In this document: positions 2,368 through 62,144 of the stretch, piece after piece
How positions within the stretch are numbered: position 1 is the stretch's first letter
How the letters are laid out: every line of letters starts with the position of its first letter
Assembly (NCBI GenBank): GCA_019058445.1
Contig: JAHPZA010000006.1
Location: forward strand, 128,001 to 192,000
Direction of reading: 5' to 3'
DNA length: 64,000 nucleotides
DNA from: Promethearchaeota archaeon
GTDB taxonomy: Archaea; Asgardarchaeota; Lokiarchaeia; Sigyniarchaeales; SOKP01
Program-made: the position numbers and the translations under genes
Notes under the pieces: model-generated
What the model saw: the letters and a program-made list of their open reading frames with translations, nothing else
Database searches by the model: none
Told to the model about the DNA's origin: nothing

Positions 2368-4095
2368 TTATAATTTTCTTTTTATTTTTCGCTTAGGAGC
2401 AGGTTTTTTAGGTTCTTCTTTCTCAGATACCTTTTCAATTTCTTTTTCAACGCGTTTTGGCTTAGCTGGAGTTGGTTTTTCTTCAGTGGGTTTTTTTGCG
2501 GGTTTTTTCTCCTTCTTAATAGGTATTTTCTCTTCTAAGGGTTTATATTTTGCATATTTTGATTTACCTGTATGATAACCCACTCCAATACCGACAATTA
2601 TTCCTATGATCGAACCGACTACTAACGTAATCCATGGTAAGATGTCTGAAATTAAATCAGGAACAACTGTTATTTGTTGGGGACCAGTATCAAAATCATC
2701 ATCGAGATCGGTGGTTTCACCATCCGTATCAGTAACAGAGACGTAAACAGTCCAAGTTCCAGAGCTTAAATCTTCTGTTCTAATGGTTAATTCAGAACCA
2801 CCATCTTCATATGCTACAGAAGCTTCATATTCATCCTTTTCGTCAGCCATTGGATCTTCCAAAATAAGTTCCACAGTAATATAGGAAATTCCCTCAACAT
2901 CACTCACATCAAAATCGAATTCCAAATCATCACCATAAGGAACCGAAATTCTTTCATCAGTATCAATATCATTAATCTCGTATCCATCTATATCTGGAGC
3001 ATTATTTTTTATTAATACTCCAGTATTTTGAACAGTCACCCCTCCATTGCCATCATCAGCAGTAAACTCAACATTATAATTTCCTTTAGGTCGGCTTCCA
3101 TCTATCGTAAAGTTCCCTTCAAAGACATTACCTTGGCTATTAAATAATTCGGGATTATCAATCGTAACTGTTTGACCATTTGTATCAGTTATTTTCATAT
3201 TAACTCCCTGCATATCACTTTCCTTATCACTAGCATTTAATGTCACAACACAAAATTCTTCTCTAAAAACTGAGCTTGGGCTAAATTTAATATTACTAAT
3301 TACCGGATCCGAATTCTTGATAAAAAATCCAAAATAATCTGCATGCCAAGTAGTCCAAAAATCTTCTGTCAAATTTACTGCAACATAATAATAGCTATTA
3401 ACACGGTCAAAACTCTCATCTATAGTGAAGTTAATTTGAAAGGGATTTTTCGTAAATTCTTGAATTATATGTTGTTGAGATGCAGTAGTGGCATTTACAA
3501 CTAGGATCTCCCAATCATAGTTATCAGATTCGTCAATTGCAATATCAGCAACTACTTCCTCATCTCTATAATATTCACTACTATTAAATCCAACCATGCT
3601 AGTAGATCTTATTGTAAAATTTGTATAGGTTGTTTGAGTATTTAAAAGGTAATTTGTAGAATTACGGATTTCAAAGCTTACTCTTTGTAATCCTAATGGA
3701 GCATTTCCCCTTGGAGTGTATGTATATGTAAAATTTTTATTAGTTCCTGGGATATATGACATGTTAAAAAGCGAATCCGAGTTGTTAGTAAAGTATATCC
3801 TCATATAGGTCTTATTTGCAGCTAAAAATCCAGATACATTAACGGTTATATTAATTGATTGAAATCCCCGACGAATTATTGTAGTATTTCTAAATATTGA
3901 GGAATAATTTAGAGTATTTACTCCATTTGCGGATTTTAACTTATCTTTTCGATCTAAAAATTCACTATCTTGACCAACATATCTAAAATTGTCACTATCC
4001 TTATTATTCTCTGCTGAGAGCAGAGCAATACCCAGAAAAGTATTGAATACCAGTAAAAAAAAGAGCACAATGCAAAATGTTTTTTTTTTATTCAT
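2368..4095 (-). CDS. secreted, C-terminally membrane-anchored surface protein with Ig-like beta domains and Lys/Pro/Glu-rich tail
   Basis: N-terminal hydrophobic signal, many NxS/T sequons, repeated 'N..P.I' Ig-like modules, C-terminal TM helix followed by a basic low-complexity tail. Confidence 0.75.
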   Translation of the reverse strand: MNKKKTFCIVLFFLLVFNTFLGIALLSAENNKDSDNFRYVGQDSEFLDRKDKLKSANGVNTLNYSSIFRNTTIIRRGFQSINITVNVSGFLAANKTYMRIYFTNNSDSLFNMSYIPGTNKNFTYTYTPRGNAPLGLQRVSFEIRNSTNYLLNTQTTYTNFTIRSTSMVGFNSSEYYRDEEVVADIAIDESDNYDWEILVVNATTASQQHIIQEFTKNPFQINFTIDESFDRVNSYYYVAVNLTEDFWTTWHADYFGFFIKNSDPVISNIKFSPSSVFREEFCVVTLNASDKESDMQGVNMKITDTNGQTVTIDNPELFNSQGNVFEGNFTIDGSRPKGNYNVEFTADDGNGGVTVQNTGVLIKNNAPDIDGYEINDIDTDERISVPYGDDLEFDFDVSDVEGISYITVELILEDPMADEKDEYEASVAYEDGGSELTIRTEDLSSGTWTVYVSVTDTDGETTDLDDDFDTGPQQITVVPDLISDILPWITLVVGSIIGIIVGIGVGYHTGKSKYAKYKPLEEKIPIKKEKKPAKKPTEEKPTPAKPKRVEKEIEKVSEKEEPKKPAPKRKIKRKL

Positions 4096-25631: not shown

Positions 25632-27062
25632 GTGAAAGATATGATTAGATTTAGTGATAAGCAATTAAAAATCCCTAAATTAATGAGGCCGGTATATCTT
25701 GTTACAGCAGGTATGTCAAAATTTGATCGAGCATTTCCAGAAACTCGAACTGAAGAGCTTTGCATAGACGCTTTAACCGCAGCTTCTGATTTTGTAGGTA
25801 TGACACCAGCTGAATTAAAAAAGTACATTCATACATGCTATTATGGTCATTTCGCAGATCATTTTGGTGATCAATTGCTCGGTGAAGCTGTAATCCATGA
25901 TCGACTGGGTTTAGATCCTTTAGGGAATATAGGTGTAAAAACTGGAGGTGCTACAGGAGGTTCAGCTATGTGGGAGGCTGTAAAAGCCGTAGCTTCTGGA
26001 TATAGTGACTGTGCGCTCGCTCTTGGTTGGGAAAGGATGGATGAAGTACCCACTGATGAAGGCAACCATCTTATTTCTTGTGCCGCAGATAAAGATTGGG
26101 AAACTCCCTTAGGACACATTTATACAGGATATTACGCAGTTATGGCACAACGATACTGGAAAGTTTTTGGTAAAGAACAAGATTCTTTTAGGAAAACAAT
26201 GGCGGAAATTGCCGTAAAAAATCGTGGCTACGCTCGAATGAACCCTCATGCCCATGGGCCAATGAAAATTACTGTAGAGGATGTCACTAACTCCCCTATA
26301 GTGGCTTATCCTCTTCGGGTTTTAGACTGTTGTTTAATGAGTGTGGGATCCGCATGTGGTGTGGTGTGTGATGAAAAAACGGCATATGAAATTACGGATA
26401 AACCTCTAAGAATATATATTGCTGCGGGAAGTCATACGTTAAGAGTAGCAGATCGACGGGATATGACAATACCCCTTTTACCAAACGAAACTCCGGGGCA
26501 GTATGACGACATAGGAAAGAAATTTCCAGGTGGTGATCGATATCCTGGTTTTTCTAGCTTTTTGGCCGCACGTGTAGCCGCATATTACGCATATCACATG
26601 TCAGGTGTAGTCGATCCTTCTGAAGATCTCGATGTTGTGGAGTTACATGATGCGTTTACGATTAGTGATATCCAAACCTACGAGGATATCGGAATTCGCC
26701 CTTATGGAGAGGGAAGAGACTATATTGAGTCAGGAGATGCATATGTAATAAATCCACTTACGAAGAAACCTGGAAAACTACCAAGTAATCCATGTGGAGG
26801 ATTAATTGGTTGCATGCACGCCGTAGGGGCAACAGGACTTATGCAGATTGCTGAAATAGGGTATCATATTTGGAATCGATGGGATGAGATTCATGAGCCA
26901 GAAGAAAAATGGAAAGCCTTCGGACGAGAAAAACCAAAAGATTGGACGAGCCTTCAAGTAAAGGGAGCTAAACGCGGTTTGGCAATAAGTCATGCGGGGG
27001 TAGGTTCCCATGTAACTTGTACAATTTTAATGGATCCAAATAAATTAATAAAGGAGGATTAA
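25632..27062 (+). CDS. thiolase-fold protein lacking canonical nucleophilic Cys
   Basis: GGATGG at the C-x-S/G nucleophile position; VKNR, DCCLMS, VELHDAF and NPxGGLIGxxHAVGATG motifs. Confidence 0.88.
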   Translation: MKDMIRFSDKQLKIPKLMRPVYLVTAGMSKFDRAFPETRTEELCIDALTAASDFVGMTPAELKKYIHTCYYGHFADHFGDQLLGEAVIHDRLGLDPLGNIGVKTGGATGGSAMWEAVKAVASGYSDCALALGWERMDEVPTDEGNHLISCAADKDWETPLGHIYTGYYAVMAQRYWKVFGKEQDSFRKTMAEIAVKNRGYARMNPHAHGPMKITVEDVTNSPIVAYPLRVLDCCLMSVGSACGVVCDEKTAYEITDKPLRIYIAAGSHTLRVADRRDMTIPLLPNETPGQYDDIGKKFPGGDRYPGFSSFLAARVAAYYAYHMSGVVDPSEDLDVVELHDAFTISDIQTYEDIGIRPYGEGRDYIESGDAYVINPLTKKPGKLPSNPCGGLIGCMHAVGATGLMQIAEIGYHIWNRWDEIHEPEEKWKAFGREKPKDWTSLQVKGAKRGLAISHAGVGSHVTCTILMDPNKLIKED

Positions 27063-27065
27063 AAA

Positions 27066-27668
27066 ATGCCTAAAACAAATGAGGAAAAAGGTTTTGTTGA
27101 TATAATTAACGGGAGATATAAACCCAATGGAAAATTTCACATAATTGAAGCGAATCAACCAATATTTAATAAAGATACTGGAAAATTGGCTGGAGTGACG
27201 AACCCTAGAGACATGACCTACATCCATTCGTATGGAGGAGAGGCAATTTTCTTTGAATCGCTTGGAAAAGGAAAACTTATGGCAACTCGATGTGACAACG
27301 ATAAGTGTGAAGCAAAGGGTTCTATATTTGAACCTTTTAGAATTTTTTGTCCAGATTGCTTAAGAAAAGCTACTGTAGTCGATATCACAGAAAAGGCTCA
27401 ACAAATGGCAAAAATTCATTCCTTCATAATAACTCATCGTTCAGGCGCCTTTAATACTCTTCCAAAACCGATTAAATTTATCAACGTAGAATTCGATGAG
27501 GAAGTAGTTACTATTTTGATGAGCGTATTGTCAGTTGGTGAGCCAGAAATTGGGAAAAGAGTTGTCCCGATCTTTCGAACTAAAGATCCGACATATACTA
27601 TTATGGATCTTATGTTTGTGGTAGAAGGAACACCTGAATCGGATTTACCAGAAGGATTTACTTATTAA
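27066..27668 (+). CDS. DUF35 Zn-ribbon/OB-fold protein (thiolase partner)
   Basis: FFxxLxxGKLMATRC....C...PxRxxCPDC followed by an OB fold; directly downstream of the thiolase. Confidence 0.85.
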   Translation: MPKTNEEKGFVDIINGRYKPNGKFHIIEANQPIFNKDTGKLAGVTNPRDMTYIHSYGGEAIFFESLGKGKLMATRCDNDKCEAKGSIFEPFRIFCPDCLRKATVVDITEKAQQMAKIHSFIITHRSGAFNTLPKPIKFINVEFDEEVVTILMSVLSVGEPEIGKRVVPIFRTKDPTYTIMDLMFVVEGTPESDLPEGFTY

Positions 27669-27867
27669 TTTCCAATATTTTTACTATCCATATTTTATTT
27701 TTTTTTAATTTTTTTAAATTAGTTTGTTCAATATAACCATTTTAATTAAATTTTTCAATAAAAATGAATATCATTTAATAGGTTTCGGTGATCCACATCG
27801 ATCTATTAATCTTGTTAATTTCAAGATCTTTAATTCAATTTAAAAAAAAAAAGAAATAAAATAAATT

Positions 27868-28764
27868 TTATAATATAACAGAGCCTTCTTTTAAGTGAAA
27901 AATTTTACGTGCCTCATCAGGAGTAGCTGGCTCACGTCCAGCAATTCTAGCTACCTTTGCTGCCCATTCTACTTGTTCATAAGATCCCTTTGCTAACCCT
28001 CCATCAATGATTCGTGTATTATCCTCTAAACCTACCCTAATGTGTCCTCCCATAGGTGCGGCACACATAGCTGCGCGAAATTGATCTTTAGCTACCCCAC
28101 ACACACTCCATGTAGAGTTTGGAGGCATTAAATTAAGAAGGCTTGCGAGATTTTGGTAAGAAAATGGTACCCCTCCAAGAACCCCCCATACTAATTGAAA
28201 ATGAAGTGGCTGGGCAAAAAGGCCTTCTTGCCTGTTTAAAAATACCATATTATACATGCCGCCATAATCATACACTTCCATCTCAGGCTTCGTTCCAGCC
28301 TTTTTCATTTCTTTTGCAAACTTTTCAACCATTCGAAAATTATTAACGAAGACATTGGTATTACCCATGGTTACTTTTCCTTTTCTATGGTCGCCAACAC
28401 TGAAATTCATTGAATTGGTATTTAAGGATGCCAATGGGGGCTGAAATCTTTTAACAGGCGCGATTCTCTCTTTTTCTGTTGCTACCGCACTTATTGCGGA
28501 ACTTAGATTTATTATTATATCAGGAGCCTTTTCCTTAATAGCTACTAATACAGCTCTAATTTGTTCCAAATCGGCAGTAGGATTACCTTTTTCGGGATCT
28601 CTGGCATGGATATGCACAATTGCCGCACCTGCCTCATAGCATTTTTTCGCCTCTTCTCCAAATTCTTCAGGAGTATAAGGTACATTAGGATTTTGGGCTT
28701 TAACAGTAACAGCTCCTGCGAGTGCAGCGCTAATTACTAATTTATTCGATAAATCTTCAGACAT
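27868..28764 (-). CDS. beta-keto acid cleavage enzyme (BKACE/DUF849, Kce-like)
   Basis: PYTPEE, AGAAIVHIHARD, SMNF, KPEMEVYD and HIRVGLEDN motifs. Confidence 0.92.
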   Translation of the reverse strand: MSEDLSNKLVISAALAGAVTVKAQNPNVPYTPEEFGEEAKKCYEAGAAIVHIHARDPEKGNPTADLEQIRAVLVAIKEKAPDIIINLSSAISAVATEKERIAPVKRFQPPLASLNTNSMNFSVGDHRKGKVTMGNTNVFVNNFRMVEKFAKEMKKAGTKPEMEVYDYGGMYNMVFLNRQEGLFAQPLHFQLVWGVLGGVPFSYQNLASLLNLMPPNSTWSVCGVAKDQFRAAMCAAPMGGHIRVGLEDNTRIIDGGLAKGSYEQVEWAAKVARIAGREPATPDEARKIFHLKEGSVIL

Positions 28765-28929
28765 TTTTAATCTCTAACCTCAATAATAGTATTTTAATTT
28801 TATATTTAATGAGTAAAATAAAGTTTGGATAAATTAAAACACTACATATTTTAGGTTTTAAACCTATATTCAAAATAAAATGAATATAAAGAATAAAAAT
28901 AAGAAATTTAAGAAATAAATAAAAAAAAA

Positions 28930-29817
28930 TTAGATATTAATAGTACCTTCTTTTAGGCCTAACATTTTACGAGTTTCGTCTGGCGTCGCGGGTTCCCTGC
29001 CTGCTAATTCTGCCACTTTTACGGCCCATTCGACTTGCTCCCAAGAACCTTTTGCCAATTCACCTTTTATATTTCGAATATTATCCTCTAATCCAACTCG
29101 AATGTGTCCTCCTAAAGCTGCTGCACATAATCCCGCCTCAAATTGTTGATGAGCAACTCCACAGACTGACCACGTAGCATCTGGAGGTTTATGATTTAAA
29201 AAATATTGTAGAGTATTAATCGTAAATGGCAGACCACCCAAAACGCCAAAGACGAACTGGAAATGAAGAGGTTCCACTAGAATTTTCTTCATCTGTAGAA
29301 AGGCAATATTTTGCAGCCCTCCTGCGTCGTAAATTTCTATTTCTGGTTTGGTACCAGCTTTCTTCATCGCTTTGGCAAGACGGCCGATAAGTCGAAATGT
29401 ATTACTAAAAATCGTCTCGACTACAACATCACCCGTTTTCCAATTTCCAACTCCAAAATTCATTGAGGCTGAATTTAATGAAGCCAGCTCAGGTCCAAAC
29501 TCCTTAATAGGAGCGATTCGTTCCTTATCCGTAGCATTAATACTAATCGCAGAACTTAGGTTTATTAAAATTTCGGGACACTCTTCTTTTATAGCCTTTA
29601 AAATCGATCTATAAAATTTGAGCTCAGGAGTTGCCACCTGAGTTTCAGGATCTCTCATATGAAGGTGTACGATAGCTGCTCCTGCTTCATAGCATTTTTT
29701 GCATTCTGCAGCATACTCTTCAGGTGTGATGGGGATCGCGGGATTCTGTTCCTTCCTGGTCACCGCTCCGCACAATGCTGCTGATATTATACATTTATTG
29801 GATAAATCTTCAGACAT
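28930..29817 (-). CDS. beta-keto acid cleavage enzyme (BKACE/DUF849), tandem paralog
   Basis: AGAAIVHLHMRD, SMNF, KPEIEIYD and HIRVGLEDN; same MSEDLSNK start as its neighbour. Confidence 0.92.
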   Translation of the reverse strand: MSEDLSNKCIISAALCGAVTRKEQNPAIPITPEEYAAECKKCYEAGAAIVHLHMRDPETQVATPELKFYRSILKAIKEECPEILINLSSAISINATDKERIAPIKEFGPELASLNSASMNFGVGNWKTGDVVVETIFSNTFRLIGRLAKAMKKAGTKPEIEIYDAGGLQNIAFLQMKKILVEPLHFQFVFGVLGGLPFTINTLQYFLNHKPPDATWSVCGVAHQQFEAGLCAAALGGHIRVGLEDNIRNIKGELAKGSWEQVEWAVKVAELAGREPATPDETRKMLGLKEGTINI

Positions 29818-30113
29818 TTAATTTTCTCACTTTTTTAAAATTTTATAATTTTAAGGATTAATTAATTGATTAAAATATTGGTTTTTTCATATTTAAACTT
29901 TAAAAATAGACTGAGTTTTATTGGAAATTTATGTTAATTAGAATTTAACTGAGAACTTTATAACAAACAAATCAAATTCTTAAATTATAAGCGCAAATTG
30001 AATTTTCTAAGAAGTCTTTTGAATAAAAACTTTAATATGAAAAAAAATCATATCTAACATATCAATATTCTTTATAAAATAAATTTAAAATTAAAATATA
30101 AGAGATTAAAATT

Positions 30114-31253
30114 ATGAAAGTAGCAATTGTGGGAGTAGCCCAGACCAAATATGAGAGCAACAAAATCGATCAAACCTATATGGAGCTCACGTTTGAAGTT
30201 GTGAAGAAGCTTCACAATCAATTAGGAATAACAAACGATGACGTGGGTTCGGTAATCACTGGCTCTAACGATTTCACAGATGGTAGAACAATCGCTAATA
30301 TGGCAGTACAAGATGGTGTAGGATCCGTTCGCAAGTCGGAATCGAGAGTTTCGGGAGATGGAGCTTTTGCGTACGTTTACGCTGCTATGAGAGTTTTATC
30401 TCAGGAGTACGATACAGTTTTGGTAGTTTCGCATTCCAAGTGCTCCGAAGGGGATCAGTGCCTTATTAATAACTCAATTTTCGATCCCTTCTATCAGCGA
30501 CATTTGGGTTTGGACCAAATCTCTTCTGCTGGGTTGATGGCAAATATGTATATGAGTAAATATGGTATAACGGAAGAACAAGCGGCAAAGGTGGTAGTTA
30601 AAAACAGAAAAAATGCTTTTAACAATCCTTACGCTCATATACAGAAAGAGATAACTGTTGATGATGTTCTTAAATCGCCCATGTTAGCTTATCCATTAAA
30701 AGAATTAGATCTGCCTCCATATAGCGATGGTGCAGTAGCAATGCTCCTTGCTAATGAGGAAACCGCAAAAAAATTAACAGACACACCAGTATGGTTGAGG
30801 GGATACGCTAATTGTACTGACGCGTATTATCTAGGGAATAGAAACATGACGGATTTAATTGCATTAGAATTAGCAGCAAAGGAGGCCTACAAAATGGCGG
30901 GTATTAGCGATCCTATAAAAGATATAGATGTAGCTGAAGTGTCAGAAAATTTTAGTGCACACGAGCTTATGATTTACGAAGCCTTAGGTTTTTGCGGAAA
31001 GGGAGAAGGTGGAAAGTTTATTGATAGTGGAGAAACCCAAATGGGAGGAAAAATTCCCGTAAATCCTTCTGGAGGAGTATTATCAAGCAATGTGGCTATG
31101 GCAAATGGGTTAATTCGTGTAGCGGAGGTTGCTGAACAGTTAACGGGCAAAGCAGGAAAACGTCAAATACCTGATGCAAAAACAGGATTGGCATATGGGA
31201 TGAATGGAATATGTTCTCAAGGAAATTGCGTGTTAATTTTTGGAGGTGATTAA
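30114..31253 (+). CDS. thiolase-fold protein, Ltp4-like (no catalytic Cys)
   Basis: GSNDFTDGR and ESRVSGDGAFA resemble the Ltp4 'ESHVEMDAAW' region; VNPSGG. Confidence 0.85.
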   Translation: MKVAIVGVAQTKYESNKIDQTYMELTFEVVKKLHNQLGITNDDVGSVITGSNDFTDGRTIANMAVQDGVGSVRKSESRVSGDGAFAYVYAAMRVLSQEYDTVLVVSHSKCSEGDQCLINNSIFDPFYQRHLGLDQISSAGLMANMYMSKYGITEEQAAKVVVKNRKNAFNNPYAHIQKEITVDDVLKSPMLAYPLKELDLPPYSDGAVAMLLANEETAKKLTDTPVWLRGYANCTDAYYLGNRNMTDLIALELAAKEAYKMAGISDPIKDIDVAEVSENFSAHELMIYEALGFCGKGEGGKFIDSGETQMGGKIPVNPSGGVLSSNVAMANGLIRVAEVAEQLTGKAGKRQIPDAKTGLAYGMNGICSQGNCVLIFGGD

Positions 31254-31257
31254 AAAA

Positions 31258-32436
31258 ATGCCTAAACATGATGTAGCAATAGTAGGAATTGGTCAAACTA
31301 AATTTAGAAGTAAGAGAAGGGATGTCAATATCCCCGAAATGATTTATGAAGCTGTAAAAGCAGCTCTTGATGATGCAAATCTAGAAATCAAAGATATAGA
31401 CGCTCTATTAATTGGGAATATGGATCATTTTGAGGGAATAAACTTTAGCGAGCTGTGGACAGGTATCGATGCGTGCGGATTTTATCTCAAACCTGTGGTT
31501 AAAATAGCTACGGGAGGCACTACGGGTTCCTCATTAGGTATAAGTGGATATTATAACATTGCTTCAGGGATATATGATAAAGTATTGGTTGTAGGATGGG
31601 AAAAGCTTAATGAGGGTGGAGCAACAACAGGAATAATTACTGCTTTCGACCCAGTTTGGGAGCGACCATCTTTAGCAGGAGCTTTAGGTCCACTTGCGCT
31701 TATGGCGAACATATATGCATCAAAATACGGGATAGAGCGTTCAATGGAAGCTTCAGCTGATGTGGTTGTGAAAAATCGATCAAACGCTGCAAATAACGAA
31801 TTTGCTCATTTACAGATGCCTAATATTACGACTGATTTTGTAATGAGTTCACAGATGATTAGCTATCCATTACGCTTACACGATTGTTGCCCTCAAAGTG
31901 AAGGAGCTTGCGCAGTAATTTACGCAAACGAGAACGAAGCTAAGAAAATCACAGATAATCCTGCTTGGTTTAAAGGCGTTTCAACGGCACACTATTATAC
32001 CTTTGGATGCGATGATATTATGTATAATTTGCCTACGGCAACTATTGCTTCCAAGAAGATTTATAAAAAAGTAGGTATCAAGGATCCCATAAAAGATCTT
32101 GATGTTGCTGAAATTTACGAGCCTACTTCGTGGGCTGAGCTCGCTTGGACAGAGGCGTTGGGTTTTTGCGATTTTGGTAAGGGACATACCTTATTGGATG
32201 AAGGTATTAGTAAAATGGGTGGTGAAATGCCAGTAAATCCCTCAGGTGGCGTTTTAAGTACCAATCCAATTGGTGCGACTGCATTAGTTCGATTCGCAGA
32301 GGCAGCTATTCAAATTATGGGAAGAGGTGGAAAAAGGCAAGTCCCAGATGCTGAAGTTGCTATGGGTATGGGATTTGGTGGTAGTTTATGGACAGAATTA
32401 TGCATATTGGGCAAAGACCCAAAACCAGTGAGGTGA
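31258..32436 (+). CDS. thiolase-fold protein, Ltp3-like (no catalytic Cys)
   Basis: DHFEG, ATGGTTG, AEIYEPTSWAE and NPSGGVLSTNPIGATA; ATG 8 nt after GGAGGTGA. Confidence 0.85.
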   Translation: MPKHDVAIVGIGQTKFRSKRRDVNIPEMIYEAVKAALDDANLEIKDIDALLIGNMDHFEGINFSELWTGIDACGFYLKPVVKIATGGTTGSSLGISGYYNIASGIYDKVLVVGWEKLNEGGATTGIITAFDPVWERPSLAGALGPLALMANIYASKYGIERSMEASADVVVKNRSNAANNEFAHLQMPNITTDFVMSSQMISYPLRLHDCCPQSEGACAVIYANENEAKKITDNPAWFKGVSTAHYYTFGCDDIMYNLPTATIASKKIYKKVGIKDPIKDLDVAEIYEPTSWAELAWTEALGFCDFGKGHTLLDEGISKMGGEMPVNPSGGVLSTNPIGATALVRFAEAAIQIMGRGGKRQVPDAEVAMGMGFGGSLWTELCILGKDPKPVR

Positions 32437-36187: not shown

Positions 36188-38230
36188 TTATATACTATTA
36201 CCCATTTTATAACCTCGAGCAACAGCTTCCATTACCGTTTCTGGTTTACGAGCATCTCCGATTTTCTCTACTTTAATAGTACCTAGTTGCTTGATTTCTT
36301 TATAAAGAGCATCGTTCGGTTCGACCCCGGTAGCATAATAGATATAATCTATATCACTAATTGCGTTTTCTTTACCCGAAGAGTCTGAATAATTTACATA
36401 ATTTTCGCCGATTTCAGTGACTTTTACACTTGTAAGGAATTTCACACCTAAAGCATCGCATTTATCAAGAAGTACCCATTTCGTAGTCCTTCCTAACGCA
36501 GATCCTAATTTTGGTAACATTTCAAGAACGGTAACCTTATTCCTTCCCTTATGCATCATATCTAACGCAATTTGAGGCTCTAAGGCCTTATAGAATGTAA
36601 GAAAATCAAATGCTTCACGGCTTAATGTTCCATATTTTGCAATGTATATTGCTAATTCTATACCAGTGGCTCCGCCTCCTATAATAACATTGTTCTTACC
36701 AACTGGAGCATCACCGCTTAAAGCATCATTTGCCCAATATACATTTGCTCTGTCAATACCGGGAATAGGAGGTTTTATGGGATTTGAACCAGTGGCGACA
36801 AATGCAACGTCAGGATTGAATTCTTTTACTATATCAATAGTGACATTTTGTTGGAAATGTACATTGATGCCGTATTTCTGAATCCAATAGTTATAATTAT
36901 CTATCATACGTTTAAATTCGTTTCTTCCTGGTGGAATCCAGATTATGTTTAATAACCCGCCAATTTTATCATCCTTCTCAAAAATATGAACATCATGTCC
37001 TCTAATTGCCGCTATTCTCGCAGCCTCTAATCCTCCTGCTCCTGCTCCAATAATCATAACTTTTTTCTTTTCTTTCAATGGTTTCAGTTCAGTTCGGGCT
37101 TCATTTCCCGCTCGAGCATTCCTTAAACACGTGACAGGCATCATCCTGAATACCTGGTCAAAGCATCCTTGATTGCAGCCAATACAGTTCATTATATCTC
37201 TTAATTCACCCTTTTGAGCTTTCATTGGCAGATAAGGATCAGCAATTAACCCTCTTCCAATACAAATAGCATCAGCTTTTCCGGCCATTAAAACTTGTTC
37301 GGCGAGCTCAGGGTTGTTAATTCTATTGGAAGAAAATATAGGAATAGATACACGTTTATGAATATTTTCAGCTAGGTATGTATAACATCCTTCTGGAACA
37401 TCCATTGTTAATTGTGGTGTTTTTGTTTCATGCCAACCACCTGTTACGTTGAAATAATCTAAATATTTACCTAATTCTTCTGCAATAACTACTTTTTCCT
37501 TATATGTATTGCTGCCTGGAACAAAATCATCTCCAGAAATTCGATAGCCAAGAGGGATATCGTCTACTTTAGAACGCATTAATTCAATGGTTTCAATCGG
37601 GAATCTTAAACGATTTTCAAGATCGCCCCCATATTTATCAGTTCTCTTGTTAGTTTTTGGGGAACAAAACTGATCGGTTAAATAACCAGCATTTCCGCAA
37701 ATCTCTACTGCATCGAAGCCTGCTTTCTTAGCTCTAATTGTAGCGTCGGCAAAAGCCTCTTGTTCACGCTTTATATCTTCAAGACTCATTTCCTTAGGAG
37801 TGGTCTTACTAAAATTACTATAAACTGCAGAGGGGGCAATAGGTGTTCTGCCAATTATCTGTGGGAATGCGTTTAGGCCTCAATGGTAAATCCATTTCGA
37901 GGAAGCCCCGCCATGGTATAATTGGCAACAGATCTTTACATCATCTCGAGCATTGTGTACGGCTTCAGTTAATTTCTGTAAATCAGGAATAAATTTATCG
38001 TCATCAACTGCAATCATCGATGGTAAACCCTTTGCATAAACGTCTACATAACACCCTCCTACAATTAGCATTCCAGCACCTCCCTTAGCCCTTTCAACGT
38101 AAAAATCTATCAATTTGTCAGTGATAAACCCATTTTTTGCCAAGTTGAGATGCATCGCAGGCATTATAATACGATTAGACACATCCATATCCTTTATTTT
38201 AAAAGGAGTAAATAGTTTAAAGAACTTCAT
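36188..38230 (-). CDS. NADH:flavin oxidoreductase / 2,4-dienoyl-CoA reductase (FadH-like), 670 aa after removal of a 30-nt intron; join(complement(37903..38230),complement(36188..37872))
   Basis: OYE barrel (NRIIMPAMH, ERAKGG, AGFDAVE, NKRTDKYGG), CIGCNQGC and two Rossmann motifs. Both ORF-track fragments are in one frame, separated only by a TGA inside the BHB-flanked insert. Confidence 0.9.
37873..37902 (-). other. bulge-helix-bulge (tRNA-type) intron, 30 nt, in FadH-like gene
   Basis: mRNA: GCG GGGC UU^C CUC GA AAUGG AUUUA CCAUU GAG GCCU AA^A CGC. Complete outer helix, 4-bp central helix and two 3-nt bulges; the spliced sequence reads HGGAYAFP. Confidence 0.88.
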
Positions 38231-52218: not shown

Positions 52219-53463
52219 TCACCTCCATTTTCTCTGTGGTTCATCGGACATCACCACATGAGTTATTAAATTGATAGAACCGCCCCAACCATGTCCTAAA
52301 GCAGTGTGAACTGTTTTTGGTACTTGGTTGCCAGCTTTTCCCATAATTTGTAGAGCAGCTTCAGCTGGCCGTTCCATAGCAGAAGCTCCAATCGCATTTG
52401 TCGAATTGACGCCGCCAGAACAGTTCACAGGTAATTCTCCATTAAGCGCAGTAACTCCATTCCGATATGCTTCTGGAGCCTGATTTTCTTCAAAAAGCCC
52501 AATTCTTTCAACCCACATCAATTCTTGATTTGGGAATGGAGAATAAACTTCCGCATAATCAATTTCCTTATTGGGAAATGAAATACCTGCTTGTCCATAT
52601 GCCACCTCAGCTGATTTCATCGCTCCCAGTTGTTCGCACGGATCAGTTTGGCCTGCACCTGCACAATCTATCCCTATAATGGCCGATTCATTGCTGTAAC
52701 TCGCAACACCATTGATATAGACGGGAATGTCCGCTATTTGCTTCGCTTTTTCTTCAGTTGTAATTAACATCGCGCAAGCACCATCAGAGGCAGGACATAC
52801 CATTCCAAATCTCAGAGGAAAAGAGATATATGGTGTGTCGAGTACATCCTCTATGGTAATCGTAGGCATTTTTAAATGCGTCCACCAATTTTTTGCAGCA
52901 TTTCTTCTATTTTGGACAACAACGCGGGCTAGATCCTCTTCAGTTGCCCGACTACGCCTCATATAATTCATAGCTTGATAAGAAGCTACTCCAATTGCAG
53001 CTCCGGAACCCATATTTGATCTCATCCTCTCAATGGTATAGCCTAAATCAGAAAAAATAGAAAATTCTCCTAATGCTACAGATGCTAAACCTACTGTGGT
53101 ATCCCCACATGATTGCTGCTCGAAACCGATGCATAAAACCATGTCGTATAATCCTGAGGCTACACTGTAATAACCAGCTATTGTAACAGAACCTCCTGTA
53201 GTTCCGCCTGTGGTAACCCGGAGCAACGGTTTATTTTTAGAGGCCATGTGATCTCCCATCCATAATTCTGGCATATTCGCCCCTTCAAATGCGGGCATAT
53301 TACCATTGACAACCGCATCTATGTCCTTCCAATCGATATTTGCTTTTGTAATACAATCCTCAACCGCTTCATTGACCAATTCTGCCATGTTCACATCAGA
53401 ACGTTTAGATGCGTGTTCACAAAACCCACAGCTTATTATTGCTGGTTGTACTTTATGTGCCAT
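52219..53463 (-). CDS. thiolase-fold protein, Ltp3-like (no catalytic Cys)
   Basis: PAFEG, RVTTGGTTGG, AEVYSPF and SGGVNSTNAIGAS motifs. Confidence 0.85.
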   Translation of the reverse strand: MAHKVQPAIISCGFCEHASKRSDVNMAELVNEAVEDCITKANIDWKDIDAVVNGNMPAFEGANMPELWMGDHMASKNKPLLRVTTGGTTGGSVTIAGYYSVASGLYDMVLCIGFEQQSCGDTTVGLASVALGEFSIFSDLGYTIERMRSNMGSGAAIGVASYQAMNYMRRSRATEEDLARVVVQNRRNAAKNWWTHLKMPTITIEDVLDTPYISFPLRFGMVCPASDGACAMLITTEEKAKQIADIPVYINGVASYSNESAIIGIDCAGAGQTDPCEQLGAMKSAEVAYGQAGISFPNKEIDYAEVYSPFPNQELMWVERIGLFEENQAPEAYRNGVTALNGELPVNCSGGVNSTNAIGASAMERPAEAALQIMGKAGNQVPKTVHTALGHGWGGSINLITHVVMSDEPQRKWR

Positions 53464-53466
53464 TTT

Positions 53467-54600
53467 TTAACCACCTCCCTCCAATACAAATAATATACTA
53501 TTTTGAGCACAAAAACCCACCTGTCCAGAAGCAATTGCTTTCTTGGCACCGGAAACTTGATACTCATCTGCTTCCCCTCGAAGTTGCTTCGCAGCTTCTA
53601 CTATTCTTGTCAGTCCACAAGCACAAGGAGTAAATGCACTCATCGCCCCTCCAGAAGGATTTAATGCTGATCCTGAATCAAGCAACGTCGCTCCTTTTCC
53701 ATTTTCAGCCAATTTTGCTGCCTCTGCTAATATTAATTCTTCACACGATGTATGTCCAAAGAGTTCTGCTACATCAATTTCAGATTTAGGATCACTTATT
53801 CCAGCCATTTTATACGCTTTTTCGGCCGCTTTTTCCATTGAAACGCTTTTGCTTAAATCTCTATCACCTAAATAATAGGTCTCCTGACATTGTCCCATCC
53901 CGGTGATCCACACGGGGGTATCCGTAATTTTTAAACTTTGTCTCTCAGGAGCTAAAATCATCGCAGTTGCCCCATCACATGGGATAGGATACATCAATTC
54001 CCTTAAGGGACTGCTTAAAACCTCAGAATTTAACACATCTTGCACAGAGATATCCGATTTTTTCACATCTGGTAAAGCTAAAGGATTTTTCGCAGAATTC
54101 TTATAACCTTGTACTGCAACCTTCGCAATTTCTTCTTCGCTCACGCCAAATGCTTTCATATAAGCCCTCATTTGCATTCCTCCAGCAGTATATGAGTTTA
54201 TCAAACTTATGGTTCTATCAAAAGTAGGATCTAATTCCAAGATTCTCACTGGCTCATATAAATAGCATGATGGCATGCTAAATCCATATATCATCGCTAA
54301 TTTATGGTTACCTGATAATATTCTATACTGCCCGTAAGCTGCGGCATGCGCTCCATCCATTTCGACTTTAGTCTCGTCCTTCATATAAGCCCCCCCTGCT
54401 TCTACTTTAAAGCAGTTCGAAATAGTTTTTCCATCATAGTAATCGTTCGTGCACGTTACTACAGTGGTAATATCTTTTCTTTTTAAACCAGCAGAATCCA
54501 AGGCTCCCCTCACTGCAGAGTAAATGGCTTCATAGGGACTCATCATCATATCCAGTTCAGGTTTTAGTTGACAATACCCAACAATTCCTACTCGTTCCAT
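53467..54600 (-). CDS. thiolase-fold protein, Ltp4-like (no catalytic Cys)
   Basis: NDYYDGK, ETKVEMDGAHA and NPSGG motifs. Confidence 0.85.
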   Translation of the reverse strand: MERVGIVGYCQLKPELDMMMSPYEAIYSAVRGALDSAGLKRKDITTVVTCTNDYYDGKTISNCFKVEAGGAYMKDETKVEMDGAHAAAYGQYRILSGNHKLAMIYGFSMPSCYLYEPVRILELDPTFDRTISLINSYTAGGMQMRAYMKAFGVSEEEIAKVAVQGYKNSAKNPLALPDVKKSDISVQDVLNSEVLSSPLRELMYPIPCDGATAMILAPERQSLKITDTPVWITGMGQCQETYYLGDRDLSKSVSMEKAAEKAYKMAGISDPKSEIDVAELFGHTSCEELILAEAAKLAENGKGATLLDSGSALNPSGGAMSAFTPCACGLTRIVEAAKQLRGEADEYQVSGAKKAIASGQVGFCAQNSILFVLEGGG

Positions 54601-58826: not shown

Positions 58827-59076
58827 TTGGCATCAACATTAAATTTCTAATAAATATTAATCTACATAAATGTAATTAATAGTATTCTTAGGAATTTTTA
58901 ATTTATAAATTTTAATTTTGTTTAGTCGTGAAGGAATATTCTAAAAATCTAATTGAGATAATCTTTTTTTCAATTAATAGAATAACTTCTAGAACTAAAA
59001 TAGAAAACATATCAAATTATATGTCATTTTCTATGAAATTATCTCAATAAAGAGAATAAAATAAAAAAAATAGTAA

Positions 59077-59445
59077 TTAAGTTTTAATAATGATTGTAAT
59101 TGCTCTCGTAAGACGGATAACGTCCATAACTTTTCCTTGCTCTACGATGATTTGTTCTCGACTTATTGCGTGGGTAAAATCTCCTTTTCCTTCACATATT
59201 CGTACGATAGCATTCGGATCTCCAGACATAACAATCTCTGCATTTGGGAGTGTTCCATCCACAATTTTTCCTTTCTTCTCCTTAATTTCTAAATAAAAGG
59301 GATCTTCATTCTCCAGATTAAATTGAAAAGTCATATCCCAGTTTACATCCTTGCCAGCAACGTTAGTAACAAATACCGTTTGTGCCTTAGGATTTCCATT
59401 TAAACCTTCAATAACTTTTGTTAAATTTTCTTTTGCAGCTCCCAT
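59077..59445 (-). CDS. SCP2 sterol/lipid-binding domain protein
   Basis: 122 aa; FQFNL....FYLEIK.......G....AEIVM..D.....I..G pattern; operonic with DUF35 and thiolase. Confidence 0.75.
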   Translation of the reverse strand: MGAAKENLTKVIEGLNGNPKAQTVFVTNVAGKDVNWDMTFQFNLENEDPFYLEIKEKKGKIVDGTLPNAEIVMSGDPNAIVRICEGKGDFTHAISREQIIVEQGKVMDVIRLTRAITIIIKT

Positions 59446-59447
59446 TT

Positions 59448-59951
59448 TTAAGCACCTCCCTCGTATTCTGGTTTAGCAATCCATCTTTCATACTCATCTT
59501 CAGGTACAAAAAAGAAATCCGTCATTTTACCTTCTCTGTTTTTGGAAAATACCGCTTTAACTCTTCGTCCTTTTTTAACTTTTGAGGGAACTAGATTTTC
59601 TGAAAATATTCCTTGAAATAAAGCAGTGTCAGCTCCATCTAATTTTATAAAACCTATAGAATAGGGTACCGATTTTATAAACGCAGAAGTTGTATACCAA
59701 ACGATAGTGCTAACCTCAATCGTTCCTGTTTGTTTCATTTCAATCCATTCGGTAGGCGAATAACATTCTGAGCAATTAATTCTTGGAGGCATCCATATTT
59801 TCCCGCAATTTGAATTAGTGCATTTAGTTCCTAACAACTTTTTATTGTTCATGACCTCAATAAAGAACTTAGATTGTCCTCCCATCGTGTATTTATAGTT
59901 AATTTTAATTATATCCCTTATTTCATGTGATTGAAAATCTTGCTTGCTCAT
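59448..59951 (-). CDS. DUF35 Zn-ribbon/OB-fold protein
   Basis: GTKC....C..PPRINCSEC and KLDGAD; ATGA overlap with the thiolase stop. Confidence 0.9.
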   Translation of the reverse strand: MSKQDFQSHEIRDIIKINYKYTMGGQSKFFIEVMNNKKLLGTKCTNSNCGKIWMPPRINCSECYSPTEWIEMKQTGTIEVSTIVWYTTSAFIKSVPYSIGFIKLDGADTALFQGIFSENLVPSKVKKGRRVKAVFSKNREGKMTDFFFVPEDEYERWIAKPEYEGGA

Positions 59952-61275
59952 GGTTGTTTCAATCCCTCCTCATTCGTCATTACAATAATCGCAGCATATG
60001 CTGCTCCAGGACCTCCAATTGAGTGCGCTATAGCCCTGCCTTTTTCAATTGTTACTTGGTGCTTACCAGCATCTTCTCGAAGTTGTAGTGCTGCTTCTCC
60101 TGTGCTCATAATCCCTGTAGCACCTACAGCGTGACCGCATCCAATCAATCCTCCTGATGGGCAACATGGTACTTCACCATTAATCCATGGCCCTTCTCCT
60201 GGTTTTTCAAAGCTATTTTCAATCCAAGGACCTCCTTCTCCAAAAGGAACAAATCCCAATTCTTCATACGATATAACCTCTTGCCCGCTAAATGCATCAT
60301 GCAGTTCTGCTAAGTCAACTTGTTGCTTTATTTTATTATAATCAAGTCCTGCCATTTTATAAGCTACTTTAGCTGCATTAATATTTGAATATAATCTTCC
60401 CATATCTTCTCTATTACCTATAAAACAGTCAGTATTCGCCGCACCTACACCCGTAATCCAAATTGGTTTTTCAATACCTAATTCCTTAACTTTTTCTTCT
60501 GGTGCTAGAATTAAGGCCGCTGATGCTTCTGAGTAAAGACAACAATCTAACATTTTAAAAGGATAACAAATAATCCTCGAATTCAAGACATCTTCAATTG
60601 TTAAATCCATCGGAGACTGCGCTTTAGGATTAAGCATTGCGTTTCCATGGTTTTTAACGCTAACAATAGCCAAAATTAACTAAACGTTAAAATTTTAAGC
60701 CATATGCTCTTCAGTTGGATTTCCAAATTCCTCAAAATGAGCATTAACCATAGAAACGTAAGAACTAGCTGCCATCATCCCCATAGGATACTCATAAGTC
60801 AAATCTGCTGAATATGCGATGGCATTGAGCACTTCTGGTGTTGTTGTACCTGTTTAAACTTATTAGGGATATCCTAATTGATTTGTTCATCGTAACAATC
60901 GTTACATTTTTCCAGACCAAGACATAGGCATAGGTCTGACAACCCAGAAGCAACTTCAGCATAAGCCATCCTTACAGTATAGCCGCCTGTAGCACCTCCT
61001 GAGGCAATCCGGGTACCTGGCTTATCATTCATCCCGATGTAACTATTAGTAAAAATATCCGGCATGAATTGCCGTTCAAACAGCTCGTTATAAATCCCAT
61101 ACACTGTTGATTCCAAGTCTTTGTGCGTAATTTGTGCTCCGTTCTTATTGGCATCGTCAAGCGCCAATTTTGTCGCGTCATAAGCCAGCTCAAAATAGGT
61201 CTTATCCAAATATCTTGCTCTAAAAGGTGTTATTCCTACACCTATTATCGCTACTTTTCTCACTTTATTTTTCAC
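59948..61275 (-). CDS. thiolase-fold protein (no canonical Cys), 422 aa after removal of two introns; join(complement(60883..61275),complement(60696..60853),complement(59948..60665))
   Basis: Exon 1 has KVAIIGVG, ASGGATGG and EK. The hidden middle exon reads TGTTTPEVLNAIAYSADLTYEYPMGMMAASSYVSMVNAHFEEFGNPTEEHMA. Exon 3 has VSVKNH, ELHDAF and GHAVGATG. Confidence 0.88.
60666..60695 (-). other. BHB-type intron, 30 nt (thiolase intron 2)
   Basis: mRNA: AU GGCU UA^A AAUUUUAAC GUUUA GUUAAUUUU GGCU AU^U GU. The unspliced frame has UAA (spanning the 5' junction) and UAG; the spliced sequence reads EHMAYVSVKNH. Confidence 0.75.
60854..60882 (-). other. BHB/BHL-type intron, 29 nt (thiolase intron 1)
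   Basis: mRNA: GAAC AA^A UCA AUUAGG AUAUC CCUAAU AA GUUU AA^A CAGG. Removal fixes both a stop and a frameshift; the spliced sequence reads DCYDEQTGTTTPEV. Confidence 0.8.
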
Positions 61276-61354
61276 TCAATATTTTTTAGATTTTTTTGAA
61301 TATATTATAGATATAGATTTAATTTGTCTTTAATCATATTTTAAAATTGTTAAT
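61190..61354. repeat. repeat copy 1: native thiolase 5' end plus upstream promoter region
   Basis: TAGGTCTTATC..AAATATCTTGCTCTAAAAGGTGTTATTCCTACACCTATTATCGCTACTTTTCTCAC ... ATATAGATTTAAT ... ATATTTTAAAATTGTTAAT. Confidence 0.85.
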
Positions 61355-61475
61355 CTTAATTTTGAATTATTAGGTTTGATTCAATAAGAATAGTATAAAT
61401 AATTTTTATATATTAACATAAGTTTTAGATTACTATGGATAATCCAGTTATTATATTTTAAAAAGAGACTTTTCT

Positions 61476-62144
61476 ATGGAAAACTCGGGTGATCAATATT
61501 CCGTTAAATATTCTGTTAAATATATTCTTATTCATTTTGGCTTAATATTAACAATAATTGTTGTTTTATATATAATAAGTGATATTTATCGATGGGGGCT
61601 GGATCCATACCAATTCTTAGGTTATGCTTTTTTATCAACTTTGGCTTTAGTTATCTTATTCGTTGGTATTTATCATATTCACGCTGAAAGAAATAAAATA
61701 GATTTCTTCGAAATTACATCCCCTAAAACTTTTATCAATATAATTTTAAGAAAAAGTTGGCTATTTGCAATTATTTGCATTCCAGTTGGAATATTTTTTA
61801 TATCAATCAATTTATTATCAAGTTTTTTATTTGGTTTCGAGCTTATTCGGTTATCATATGATCTGTGGTTCTTCATCATTTTAATTACTGGAATAATGGA
61901 ATTAATAAACGGTTGTCTTATATTAAAATTCAAGTCGTTCAATGTTAATTTAAATATTATTGCTTATTTATTGAATATATTAACATTGCTTTGGTACCTT
62001 ATTATATGTGGTTTTGGGATGCTATTTTATTCATTATTAGTATTTTTTCATTTCTTTTTTGTAGTACTGATTTATCAATTTATATTTAGTGTTTTGAAAA
62101 TTCTCAAAAATAAGGATCTTCTTAATAATTTTTCATTATTATAA
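61476..62144 (+). CDS. multi-pass membrane protein; in-frame zinc ribbon lies just past the stop (to 62228)
   Basis: About six TM helices. After TAA at 62142 the frame continues ICKNCGYKSLGPFEICSNCRIKQNKEN*. Confidence 0.65.
   Translation: MENSGDQYSVKYSVKYILIHFGLILTIIVVLYIISDIYRWGLDPYQFLGYAFLSTLALVILFVGIYHIHAERNKIDFFEITSPKTFINIILRKSWLFAIICIPVGIFFISINLLSSFLFGFELIRLSYDLWFFIILITGIMELINGCLILKFKSFNVNLNIIAYLLNILTLLWYLIICGFGMLFYSLLVFFHFFFVVLIYQFIFSVLKILKNKDLLNNFSLL

Follow-up and report, generated by a model that had tools for sequence, protein, structure and literature searches.

Predicted bulge-helix-bulge mini-introns in the coding sequence of a Promethearchaeota thiolase gene and of its orthologs

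The window analysed here is a stretch of 64,000 nucleotides (nt) from a Promethearchaeota (Asgard) archaeon (assembly GCA_019058445.1, contig JAHPZA010000006.1, positions 128,001 to 192,000 of the forward strand). The host genome consists of 10 contigs with a total of 4.6 Mb and 31% G+C. A gene on the minus strand, assignable to the SCP2/archaeal-type thiolases, is divided here among three open reading frames (ORFs), 61275..60874, 60832..60695, and 60673..59948. Pfam detects Thiolase_N in the first ORF and Thiolase_C_1 in the last (3.7e-24). The best PDB matches are the SCP2-type and archaeal thiolases 4yzo, 7yvy, 6esq/6et9, and 7pxp. The earliest possible start codon is GTG at 61275. Two short inserts, here called intron 1 and intron 2, separate the coding pieces (Table 1). 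When both are removed, a single frame of 1269 nt (422 codons) without internal stop is obtained. If unspliced, the message would be translated only to ...HMA, ahead of the C-terminal domain. An earlier note on this DNA had read the gene as three exons with two introns of the bulge-helix-bulge (BHB) type. This structure is backed by the single 422-codon frame and by the comparison with orthologs. The second insert, 60695..60666, is very probably a BHB (tRNA-type) intron lying within the coding sequence of the thiolase pre-mRNA.

On the minus strand, the context of intron 2 is ...GAG CAT ATG GCT TA, then the 30 nt, then T GTT AGC GTT AAA AAC CAT. The earlier note had located this insert, in frame with UAA and UAG, correctly to the base. 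Its fold also stands as first described: a central helix GGCU/GGCU, bulges UAA and AUU, an inner stem of nine positions, and a weak outer helix. Next to the first strand of the central helix, GGCT (60701-60698), comes the bulge TAA (60697-60695). Seven pairs and two U-U mismatches make up the inner stem AATTTTAAC/GTTAATTTT (60694-60686 with 60680-60672), which encloses the loop GTTTA. The second strand of the central helix, again GGCT (60671-60668), is followed by the bulge ATT (60667-60665). Two G-C and two G-U pairs make up the central helix. The outer helix is just A-U (60703/60663) and U-G (60702/60664) beside the bulge; these two pairs are invariant, but coding also fixes them.

The chance of such a motif was estimated with 2 million random placements in the source genome, at a fixed position and with 30-nt spacing. 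A central helix of four pairs with at least seven of the nine inner pairs has a chance of 6e-4, or 1.2e-4 when both outer pairs are included. For intron 2, the position is set independently by the ortholog alignment.

The ortholog set comprises 134 distinct genes with 73-82% nucleotide identity to the thiolase gene of the window. They were taken from the genomes of relatives, GTDB species genomes, and metagenome contigs, and the metagenome-assembled genomes are labelled Promethearchaeota or Promethearchaeia. Single frames are seen in 101 of the 134, and the length of the uninterrupted genes is about 419 codons. Relative to most orthologs, the 30 nt of the window stand as an insertion in the DNA alignment. 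The site is occupied in eight of the 134, the window included; the other seven are L016, L047, L063, L070, L071, L086, and L182. These seven come from separate studies and assemblies, and their exons are 76-84% identical to those of the window. Three of them (L063, L071, and L182) have inserts of 29 nt. Inserts of 29 nt break the frame, and their removal is therefore needed for the frame to hold.

The junction left by the removal distinguishes two models. A cut after nucleotide 2 of each bulge, following the BHB rule, gives MAYVSVKNH, with TA|T as the Tyr codon. The insert is also flanked by a direct repeat, and deletion of one repeat with the spacer gives MAIVSVKNH. The earlier note had pointed to the orthologs without the insert for an answer, and they favour the BHB rule. 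In 115 orthologs that are intron-less here, the residue after MA is L in 51, Y in 50, H in 7, K in 3, F in 2, M in 1, C in 1, and never Ile. Tyr is within this range, and the nearest relative without this insert, L008 from the same genus, reads ATG GCA TAC GTG, that is MAYVS. Applied to the seven other carriers, the BHB rule gives Y in L016, L047, L063, L071, and L182, and L in L070 and L086. Deletion of the repeat, or a hop from GCU to GCU, gives Ile in the window and I, N, I, N, K, and N in L016, L063, L070, L071, L086, and L182, respectively; L047 has no matching codon for either of these models.

The structure is conserved among the eight inserts and covaries. The structure scored on their alignment was written from the description in the earlier note. 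In this alignment, 93.2% of cells pair. In controls with the partners slid by 1-3 columns, the share is 20-44%. Four pairs of the inner stem change on both sides (A-U/C-G, U-A/C-G, and U-A/A-U). The inner helix has seven of nine pairs in the window and 88% across the homologs. The cells of the central helix are 100% paired in the eight introns, in L047 through GGCU/GGUU. None of 500 shuffles reached the observed value, a figure that with eight related sequences does not represent a probability. The slid controls and the compensatory pairs agree with the outcome of the shuffling.

Purifying selection is seen on all exons. Between the window and L016, L117, and L008, the ratio of nonsynonymous to synonymous substitution rates (dN/dS) of the exons is 0.02-0.05 overall, similarly low in all three exons, with dS above 1. 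For exon 2, the ratio is 0.009-0.07 against relatives. L016 also has intron 2, and the insert has therefore long coexisted with strong purifying selection.

These data bear on the possibility that the insert arose at the DNA level with a target-site duplication of TGGCT and left an inactivated pseudogene. The 5-nt direct repeat flanking the insert, TGGCT at 60702-60698 and 60672-60668, is real, as reported in the earlier note, and the insert carries two in-frame stops. Yet such an origin is highly improbable against the low dN/dS, which holds also in the comparison with the relative that shares the insert, and against the retention of the same site in eight divergent orthologs with compensatory changes. 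Short-word BLAST of both thiolase inserts against the genome matched nothing but these two, so that neither has a further copy; a multi-copy repeat element was rejected on this result. The inserts at other sites have no flanking repeats, and the downstream DUF35 partner gene is intact. The suggestion of the earlier note that the repeat may record the gain of the intron is not supported. Eight four-mers can pair with the exon-fixed GGCU, and GGCU itself is among them through G-U pairing; the exact repeat is therefore weak evidence for any mechanism of insertion. In L047 the second copy is GGUU, and the central helices at other sites are not repeats (GAAC/GTTT, TACG/CGTA, and CTGG/CCAG).

A programmed translational bypass, as in gene 60 of phage T4, would leave the insert in the message. 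The ribosome would take off at GCU, skip 30 nt over the hairpin, and land at the second GCU, producing MAIVSVKNH. The window has the matching GCU codons, a stop directly after the take-off codon, and a hairpin in the gap, and in this it superficially resembles T4 gene 60 and the mitochondrial 'byp' elements, where a short gap in the ORF, a stop, a hairpin, and matching codons are found together. In the homologous inserts, however, neither the codon match nor the stop is conserved: the landing site of L047 reads GGUU, and in L070 and L086 the take-off codon is followed by UUA and not by a stop. The residues predicted by a hop (I, N, or K) do not fit the intron-less orthologs, where L and Y prevail and I does not occur. 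No matching codon pair accompanies intron 1 or the inserts at other sites, yet they are in BHB register. A bypass is thus hardly credible here, and a BHB intron accounts for the junction in all eight genes with residues that the intron-less orthologs also use.

Intron 1 follows the same geometry. Exon 1 ends with ...GAT GAA CAA, matching the intron-less orthologs (DEQ|TG). The central helix is formed by GAAC (60888-60885) with GTTT (60859-60856), both bulges are AAA, and the inner hairpin is ATTAGG/CCTAAT. A BHB cut gives GAA CAA|ACA GGT, or DEQTG, as in the intron-less orthologs. This intron is common to L008, L125, and L184, and L070 has a 30-nt form of it. In the alignment of the five homologous copies, 96.7% of cells pair. 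In the central helix, the synonymous exon codons GAA/GAG covary with GUUU/GCUU of the intron.

Similar inserts are found over the whole ortholog set. They number one to four per gene in 33 of the 134 orthologs, are 29-35 nt long, and fall into five clusters of sites, occupied in 12 of 129 (A), 11 of 132 (B), 7 of 132 (C/D), 9 of 132 (E), and 14 of 133 (F/G) genes. In the canonical register, the one in which removal recovers the sequence of the orthologs, 39 of 48 testable inserts have a perfect 4-bp central helix, eight have three of the four pairs, and one has two. The chance of a four-pair helix at one fixed register is 0.025. The counts are those of the canonical register only; a register-shift control is confounded where the product is the same for several cuts, for example at AAA bulges. 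The family at site B is more relaxed than those at other sites and has three of four central pairs (ACGT with GCGA or GCGG). The site-B inserts in L010, L014, L062, L145, L148, and L183 are 29-35 nt long and end with ...GCGAAA or ...GCGGAA.

The inserts are distributed patchily over the gene tree, with one and the same site filled in distant clades. The closest pair of genes differing in intron content is 96.5% identical. Four mini-inserts, at sites A, C/D, E, and F/G, are seen in L182 (metagenome contig SDBT01373410.1, 1-1859). L005 (genome G005) has three, and one of them, of 34 nt with the helix GAGC/GCTT, lies 7 nt upstream of the intron-2 site of the window. A separate observation concerns L048 (DATKTP010000175.1), which has two thiolase copies about 90% identical to each other (about 491-1738 and 2808-4085), only one of them with an insert at the F/G site. 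This record is labelled as a bacterium (Deferrimicrobium), and the contig is probably mis-binned.

The variable positions of the interruptions also bear on a truly split gene, in which the pieces would be translated separately and assembled into a thiolase, exon 3 starting from TTG at 60673. The ORF starting with this TTG, inside the insert, reads MAIVSVKNH... and has 241 residues. This start is not conserved: when the frame of exon 3 is followed by eye back into the inserts of L063, L071, and L182, no ATG, GTG, or TTG is met before a stop. The split points differ between orthologs, number up to four per gene, and leave exons as short as about five codons, for which separate translation is implausible; and 101 of the 134 orthologs are single frames. 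A split gene is accordingly very improbable, and the pieces are better regarded as exons joined by removal of BHB introns.

Other genes of the source genome contain inserts of the same kind. A paralog-guided search for split genes found four further inserts of 29-30 nt that obey the rule and have canonical BHB geometry: one in a sirtuin-like gene, one in an EF-2-like gene, and one in each of two acyl-CoA-synthetase-like paralogs (Table 1). This search reaches only genes with paralogs and missed the short exon of the thiolase itself, and its yield is a lower bound. A further insert in the window interrupts an OYE/2,4-dienoyl-CoA-reductase-like gene with an in-frame TGA. By its geometry, with the central helix GGGC/GCCT and the bulges TTC and AAA, it adds a third BHB mini-intron to the two of the thiolase gene. 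All 11 orthologs of this gene are uninterrupted (664-678 codons), and the BHB-spliced gene of the window would have 670 codons. The junction in seven aligned orthologs is GG-[AGR]-Y, and the nearest, L207, reads HGGAY|AFPQ, the same as the spliced gene of the window. A 57-nt insert first delimited in this gene from paralogs was replaced by the clean 30-nt BHB intron when the orthologs of relatives were used.

The enzymes that could remove such introns are partly represented. RtcB is present in the source genome (574 bits). A match to the catalytic domain of EndA, the archaeal tRNA splicing endonuclease, is found in all 20 relatives searched, with at least two copies in 19 of them, and the one copy that was checked (from G009) keeps the catalytic Tyr, His, and Lys. 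Two-subunit EndA is the type that accepts relaxed BHB motifs (PMC5829648). For 44 of 60 Asgard genomes, such an EndA of two subunits is inferred in a 2026 preprint (bioRxiv 10.64898/2026.10.13.758758).

Several points weigh against a BHB intron removed by these enzymes. The sole EndA homologue of the assembly (C9:770313-770921, the same as L030:1219-1827) is beta-like. It is closest to the enzyme of M. jannaschii, and at two of the three catalytic positions, where that enzyme has its Tyr and His, it has Phe and Ser, which looks like the pattern of a structural beta subunit. A catalytic alpha EndA and its neighbouring gene were not found in the assembly, which is 92.6% complete. With an outer helix of two pairs, the 3' bulge of intron 2 is poorly bounded, and the motif is a relaxed one rather than a strict BHB. 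The folding energy is unremarkable (z of -1.8 to -2.0), and the 63-nt stretch has another structure as its minimum-energy fold, so that the BHB is not singled out; the support for a BHB therefore comes from geometry and comparison. A genome-wide scan of both strands for BHB motifs that restore a frame gave about 1000 matches, in the true register and in 12 shifted controls alike. With stricter stems, there were 499 matches in the true register and 432-475 in the controls, with no clear excess. Comparison of the scan matches with paralogs was equally uninformative. The signal of the scan is swamped by ordinary boundaries between genes on the same strand, and no census is therefore possible this way; either such introns are not extremely numerous or the filter is too crude. 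Finally, excision at the RNA level, and EndA and RtcB as its enzymes, are deduced from comparison.

The insert might instead be removed from the RNA by another pair of nuclease and ligase, or by self-catalysis. The catalytic EndA subunit missing from the assembly, the weak outer helix, and the site-B family with three of four central pairs would be in line with another enzyme. In 39 of 48 cases, however, the cuts placed by the orthologs fall behind the second nucleotide of a 3-nt bulge, with 4 bp between the two bulges. This spacing is the signature of EndA according to Marck and Grosjean (2003; cited in PMC11291895). EndA is also present in every relative searched, mostly in two or more copies, and 30 nt are far too short for self-splicing. 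Removal by such other means is quite unlikely.

With EndA and RtcB, the maturation of the thiolase message can be envisaged as follows. The transcript would fold locally into the 2-bp outer helix, the central helix GGCU/GGCU with UAA and AUU as bulges on opposite strands, and the inner hairpin of nine positions. Archaeal EndA, presumably of two subunits in this lineage, would cut after A60696 and after U60666. RtcB would then join the exons, and the junction codon UA|U for Tyr would give ...EEHMAYVSVKNH... in the protein. The 29-nt intron 1 would also be removed, and the resulting mRNA would encode a thiolase of 422 residues.

Two more genes follow the thiolase in the same direction (Table 1). 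The product of the first, a DUF35/OB-fold gene, is probably the partner subunit of the thiolase, because thiolase and DUF35 protein are paired in 6esq/6et9 and 7pxp. The closest solved structures (those listed above) are of thiolases that work with a DUF35 partner. Thiolase-like paralogs number about 16 in the source genome, and the window contains several (about 26199-32388 and 52243-54123). The others all appear as single open frames of 380-520 codons, and only this thiolase is interrupted. Rfam gave no match for positions 59000-62000 of the window. As for tRNA, aragorn called 23 genes in the 4.6 Mb, 19 of them with introns, and some of the calls are dubious. This suggests that many tRNA genes are too interrupted for detection, in agreement with the heavily interrupted tRNA genes of Asgard archaea described in PMC11291895.

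Table 1. Locations of the thiolase gene parts, the genes that follow it, and predicted BHB inserts in other genes of the same genome (window positions unless a contig is given)
Feature	Location	Strand	Basis or remark
Thiolase exon 1 (N-terminal thiolase domain)	60883..61275	-	Pfam Thiolase_N
Intron 1, predicted 29-nt frame-breaking BHB mini-intron	60854..60882	-	Ortholog alignment and BHB geometry
Thiolase exon 2, 158 nt	60696..60853	-	TGTTTPEV...EEHMA and first two bases of the Tyr codon
Intron 2, predicted 30-nt in-frame BHB mini-intron with UAA and UAG	60666..60695	-	Sequence, orthologs
Full BHB motif of intron 2: outer helix (h) 2 bp, central helix (H) GGCU/GGCU, bulges UAA and AUU, inner helix (h') 9 positions, loop GUUUA	60663..60703	-	
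Thiolase exon 3, C-terminal domain with GCGH region, including stop	59948..60665	-	Pfam Thiolase_C_1
DUF35/OB-fold (ChsH2_C-like) gene, overlapping the thiolase stop	59448..59951	-	Pfam OB_ChsH2_C
SCP2-domain gene, next after the DUF35 gene, same direction	59077..59445	-	Pfam SCP2
Insert in OYE/2,4-dienoyl-CoA-reductase-like gene, 30 nt, in-frame TGA	37902..37873	-	Pieces 38230..37880 and 37789..36188
Insert in sirtuin-like gene	C9:775863-775892		Spliced form aligns gap-free, 258 residues, 74% identical to the uninterrupted tandem paralog
Insert in EF-2-like gene	C10:684116-684145		Spliced form aligns across the junction with uninterrupted paralogs
Insert in acyl-CoA-synthetase-like gene, first paralog	C6:862879-862908		Spliced form aligns across the junction with uninterrupted paralogs
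Insert in acyl-CoA-synthetase-like gene, second paralog, 29 nt	C6:877181-877209		Spliced form aligns across the junction with uninterrupted paralogs

The closest known counterpart of these introns interrupts the cbf5 pre-mRNA of Crenarchaeota and is likewise defined by a BHB motif (Watanabe et al. 2002; Yokobori et al. 2009, PMC2738675). In 2020, cbf5 was given as the sole reported example, besides the 5' untranslated region (UTR) case of that paper itself (PMC7714728). Like the thiolase introns, the cbf5 intron lies in an archaeal coding sequence and is patchy among relatives, with gain and loss. The tRNA splicing endonuclease excises it, and would do so here as well. Unlike the thiolase, cbf5 is an RNA-modification gene of TACK archaea with one intron. 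Here, the host is a metabolic gene of Asgard archaea, with two introns in the window and up to four in the orthologs, in five site clusters and with lengths in the narrow range of 29-35 nt, and the same genome has at least five other affected genes. The BHB intron of HVO_1309 in Haloferax volcanii (PMC7714728) is similar in that EndA processes an mRNA, but it is a single case, and its place is the untranslated leader, outside the reading frame.

The tRNA introns of Asgard archaea share the motif, the organism group, and presumably the two-subunit EndA with the thiolase introns. Most Asgard tRNA genes are interrupted, and intron gains appear to have been repeated and independent (PMC11291895; bioRxiv 10.64898/2026.10.13.758758). 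These two studies report no introns in protein-coding genes. The thiolase introns differ in having an mRNA as host, so that the exon half of the motif is under coding constraint, as the covariation of GAA/GAG illustrates. In the full-text literature, with few subscription journals covered, no account of such introns in protein-coding genes of Asgard archaea was found, and BHB introns in archaeal mRNA were found only for cbf5 and for the one Haloferax 5' UTR (PMC2738675, PMC7714728). The thiolase introns appear to be part of a wider and apparently undescribed set of mRNA mini-introns of about 30 nt in this Asgard lineage.

A comparable scheme operates in the splicing of HAC1 and XBP1 mRNAs of eukaryotes. 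There, a protein endonuclease excises a short intron (26 nt in XBP1) between stem-loops, and a tRNA ligase seals the exons. The removal restores or changes the frame, RtcB ligates XBP1, and the process is regulated by stress. This pathway is mentioned in PMC13149111 and PMC8718801. The likeness is in the short intron and in the use of an endonuclease together with a tRNA ligase, as proposed here. The differences are that the endonuclease is IRE1, which is not a homologue of EndA/Sen, that the recognition motif is another one, and that the splicing is under stress regulation.

On balance, it appears probable that Promethearchaeota possess BHB mini-introns of about 30 nt that turn over in ordinary protein-coding genes and are removed by the tRNA-splicing machinery. 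They would occur several per gene and at recurrent sites, the exon would supply half of the motif, and gain or loss would occur between genes as close as 96% identity. Gene callers would split such genes into two to five ORFs or call them pseudogenes or fragments, and this mis-annotation would distort metabolic reconstructions and completeness estimates of Asgard archaea. The thiolase family would be a tractable system for the gain and loss of introns removed by enzymes: distant clades share sites, close genes differ in their introns, and synonymous sites of the exon covary with the intron. Eukaryotes still use a tRNA ligase in the splicing of HAC1/XBP1 mRNA. If metabolic genes of Asgard archaea have multiple introns, mRNA maturation would be a routine task of the tRNA-splicing enzymes in the lineage closest to eukaryotes. 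If this is true, a system of 'genes in pieces' based on protein enzymes would exist in the closest prokaryotic relatives of eukaryotes.

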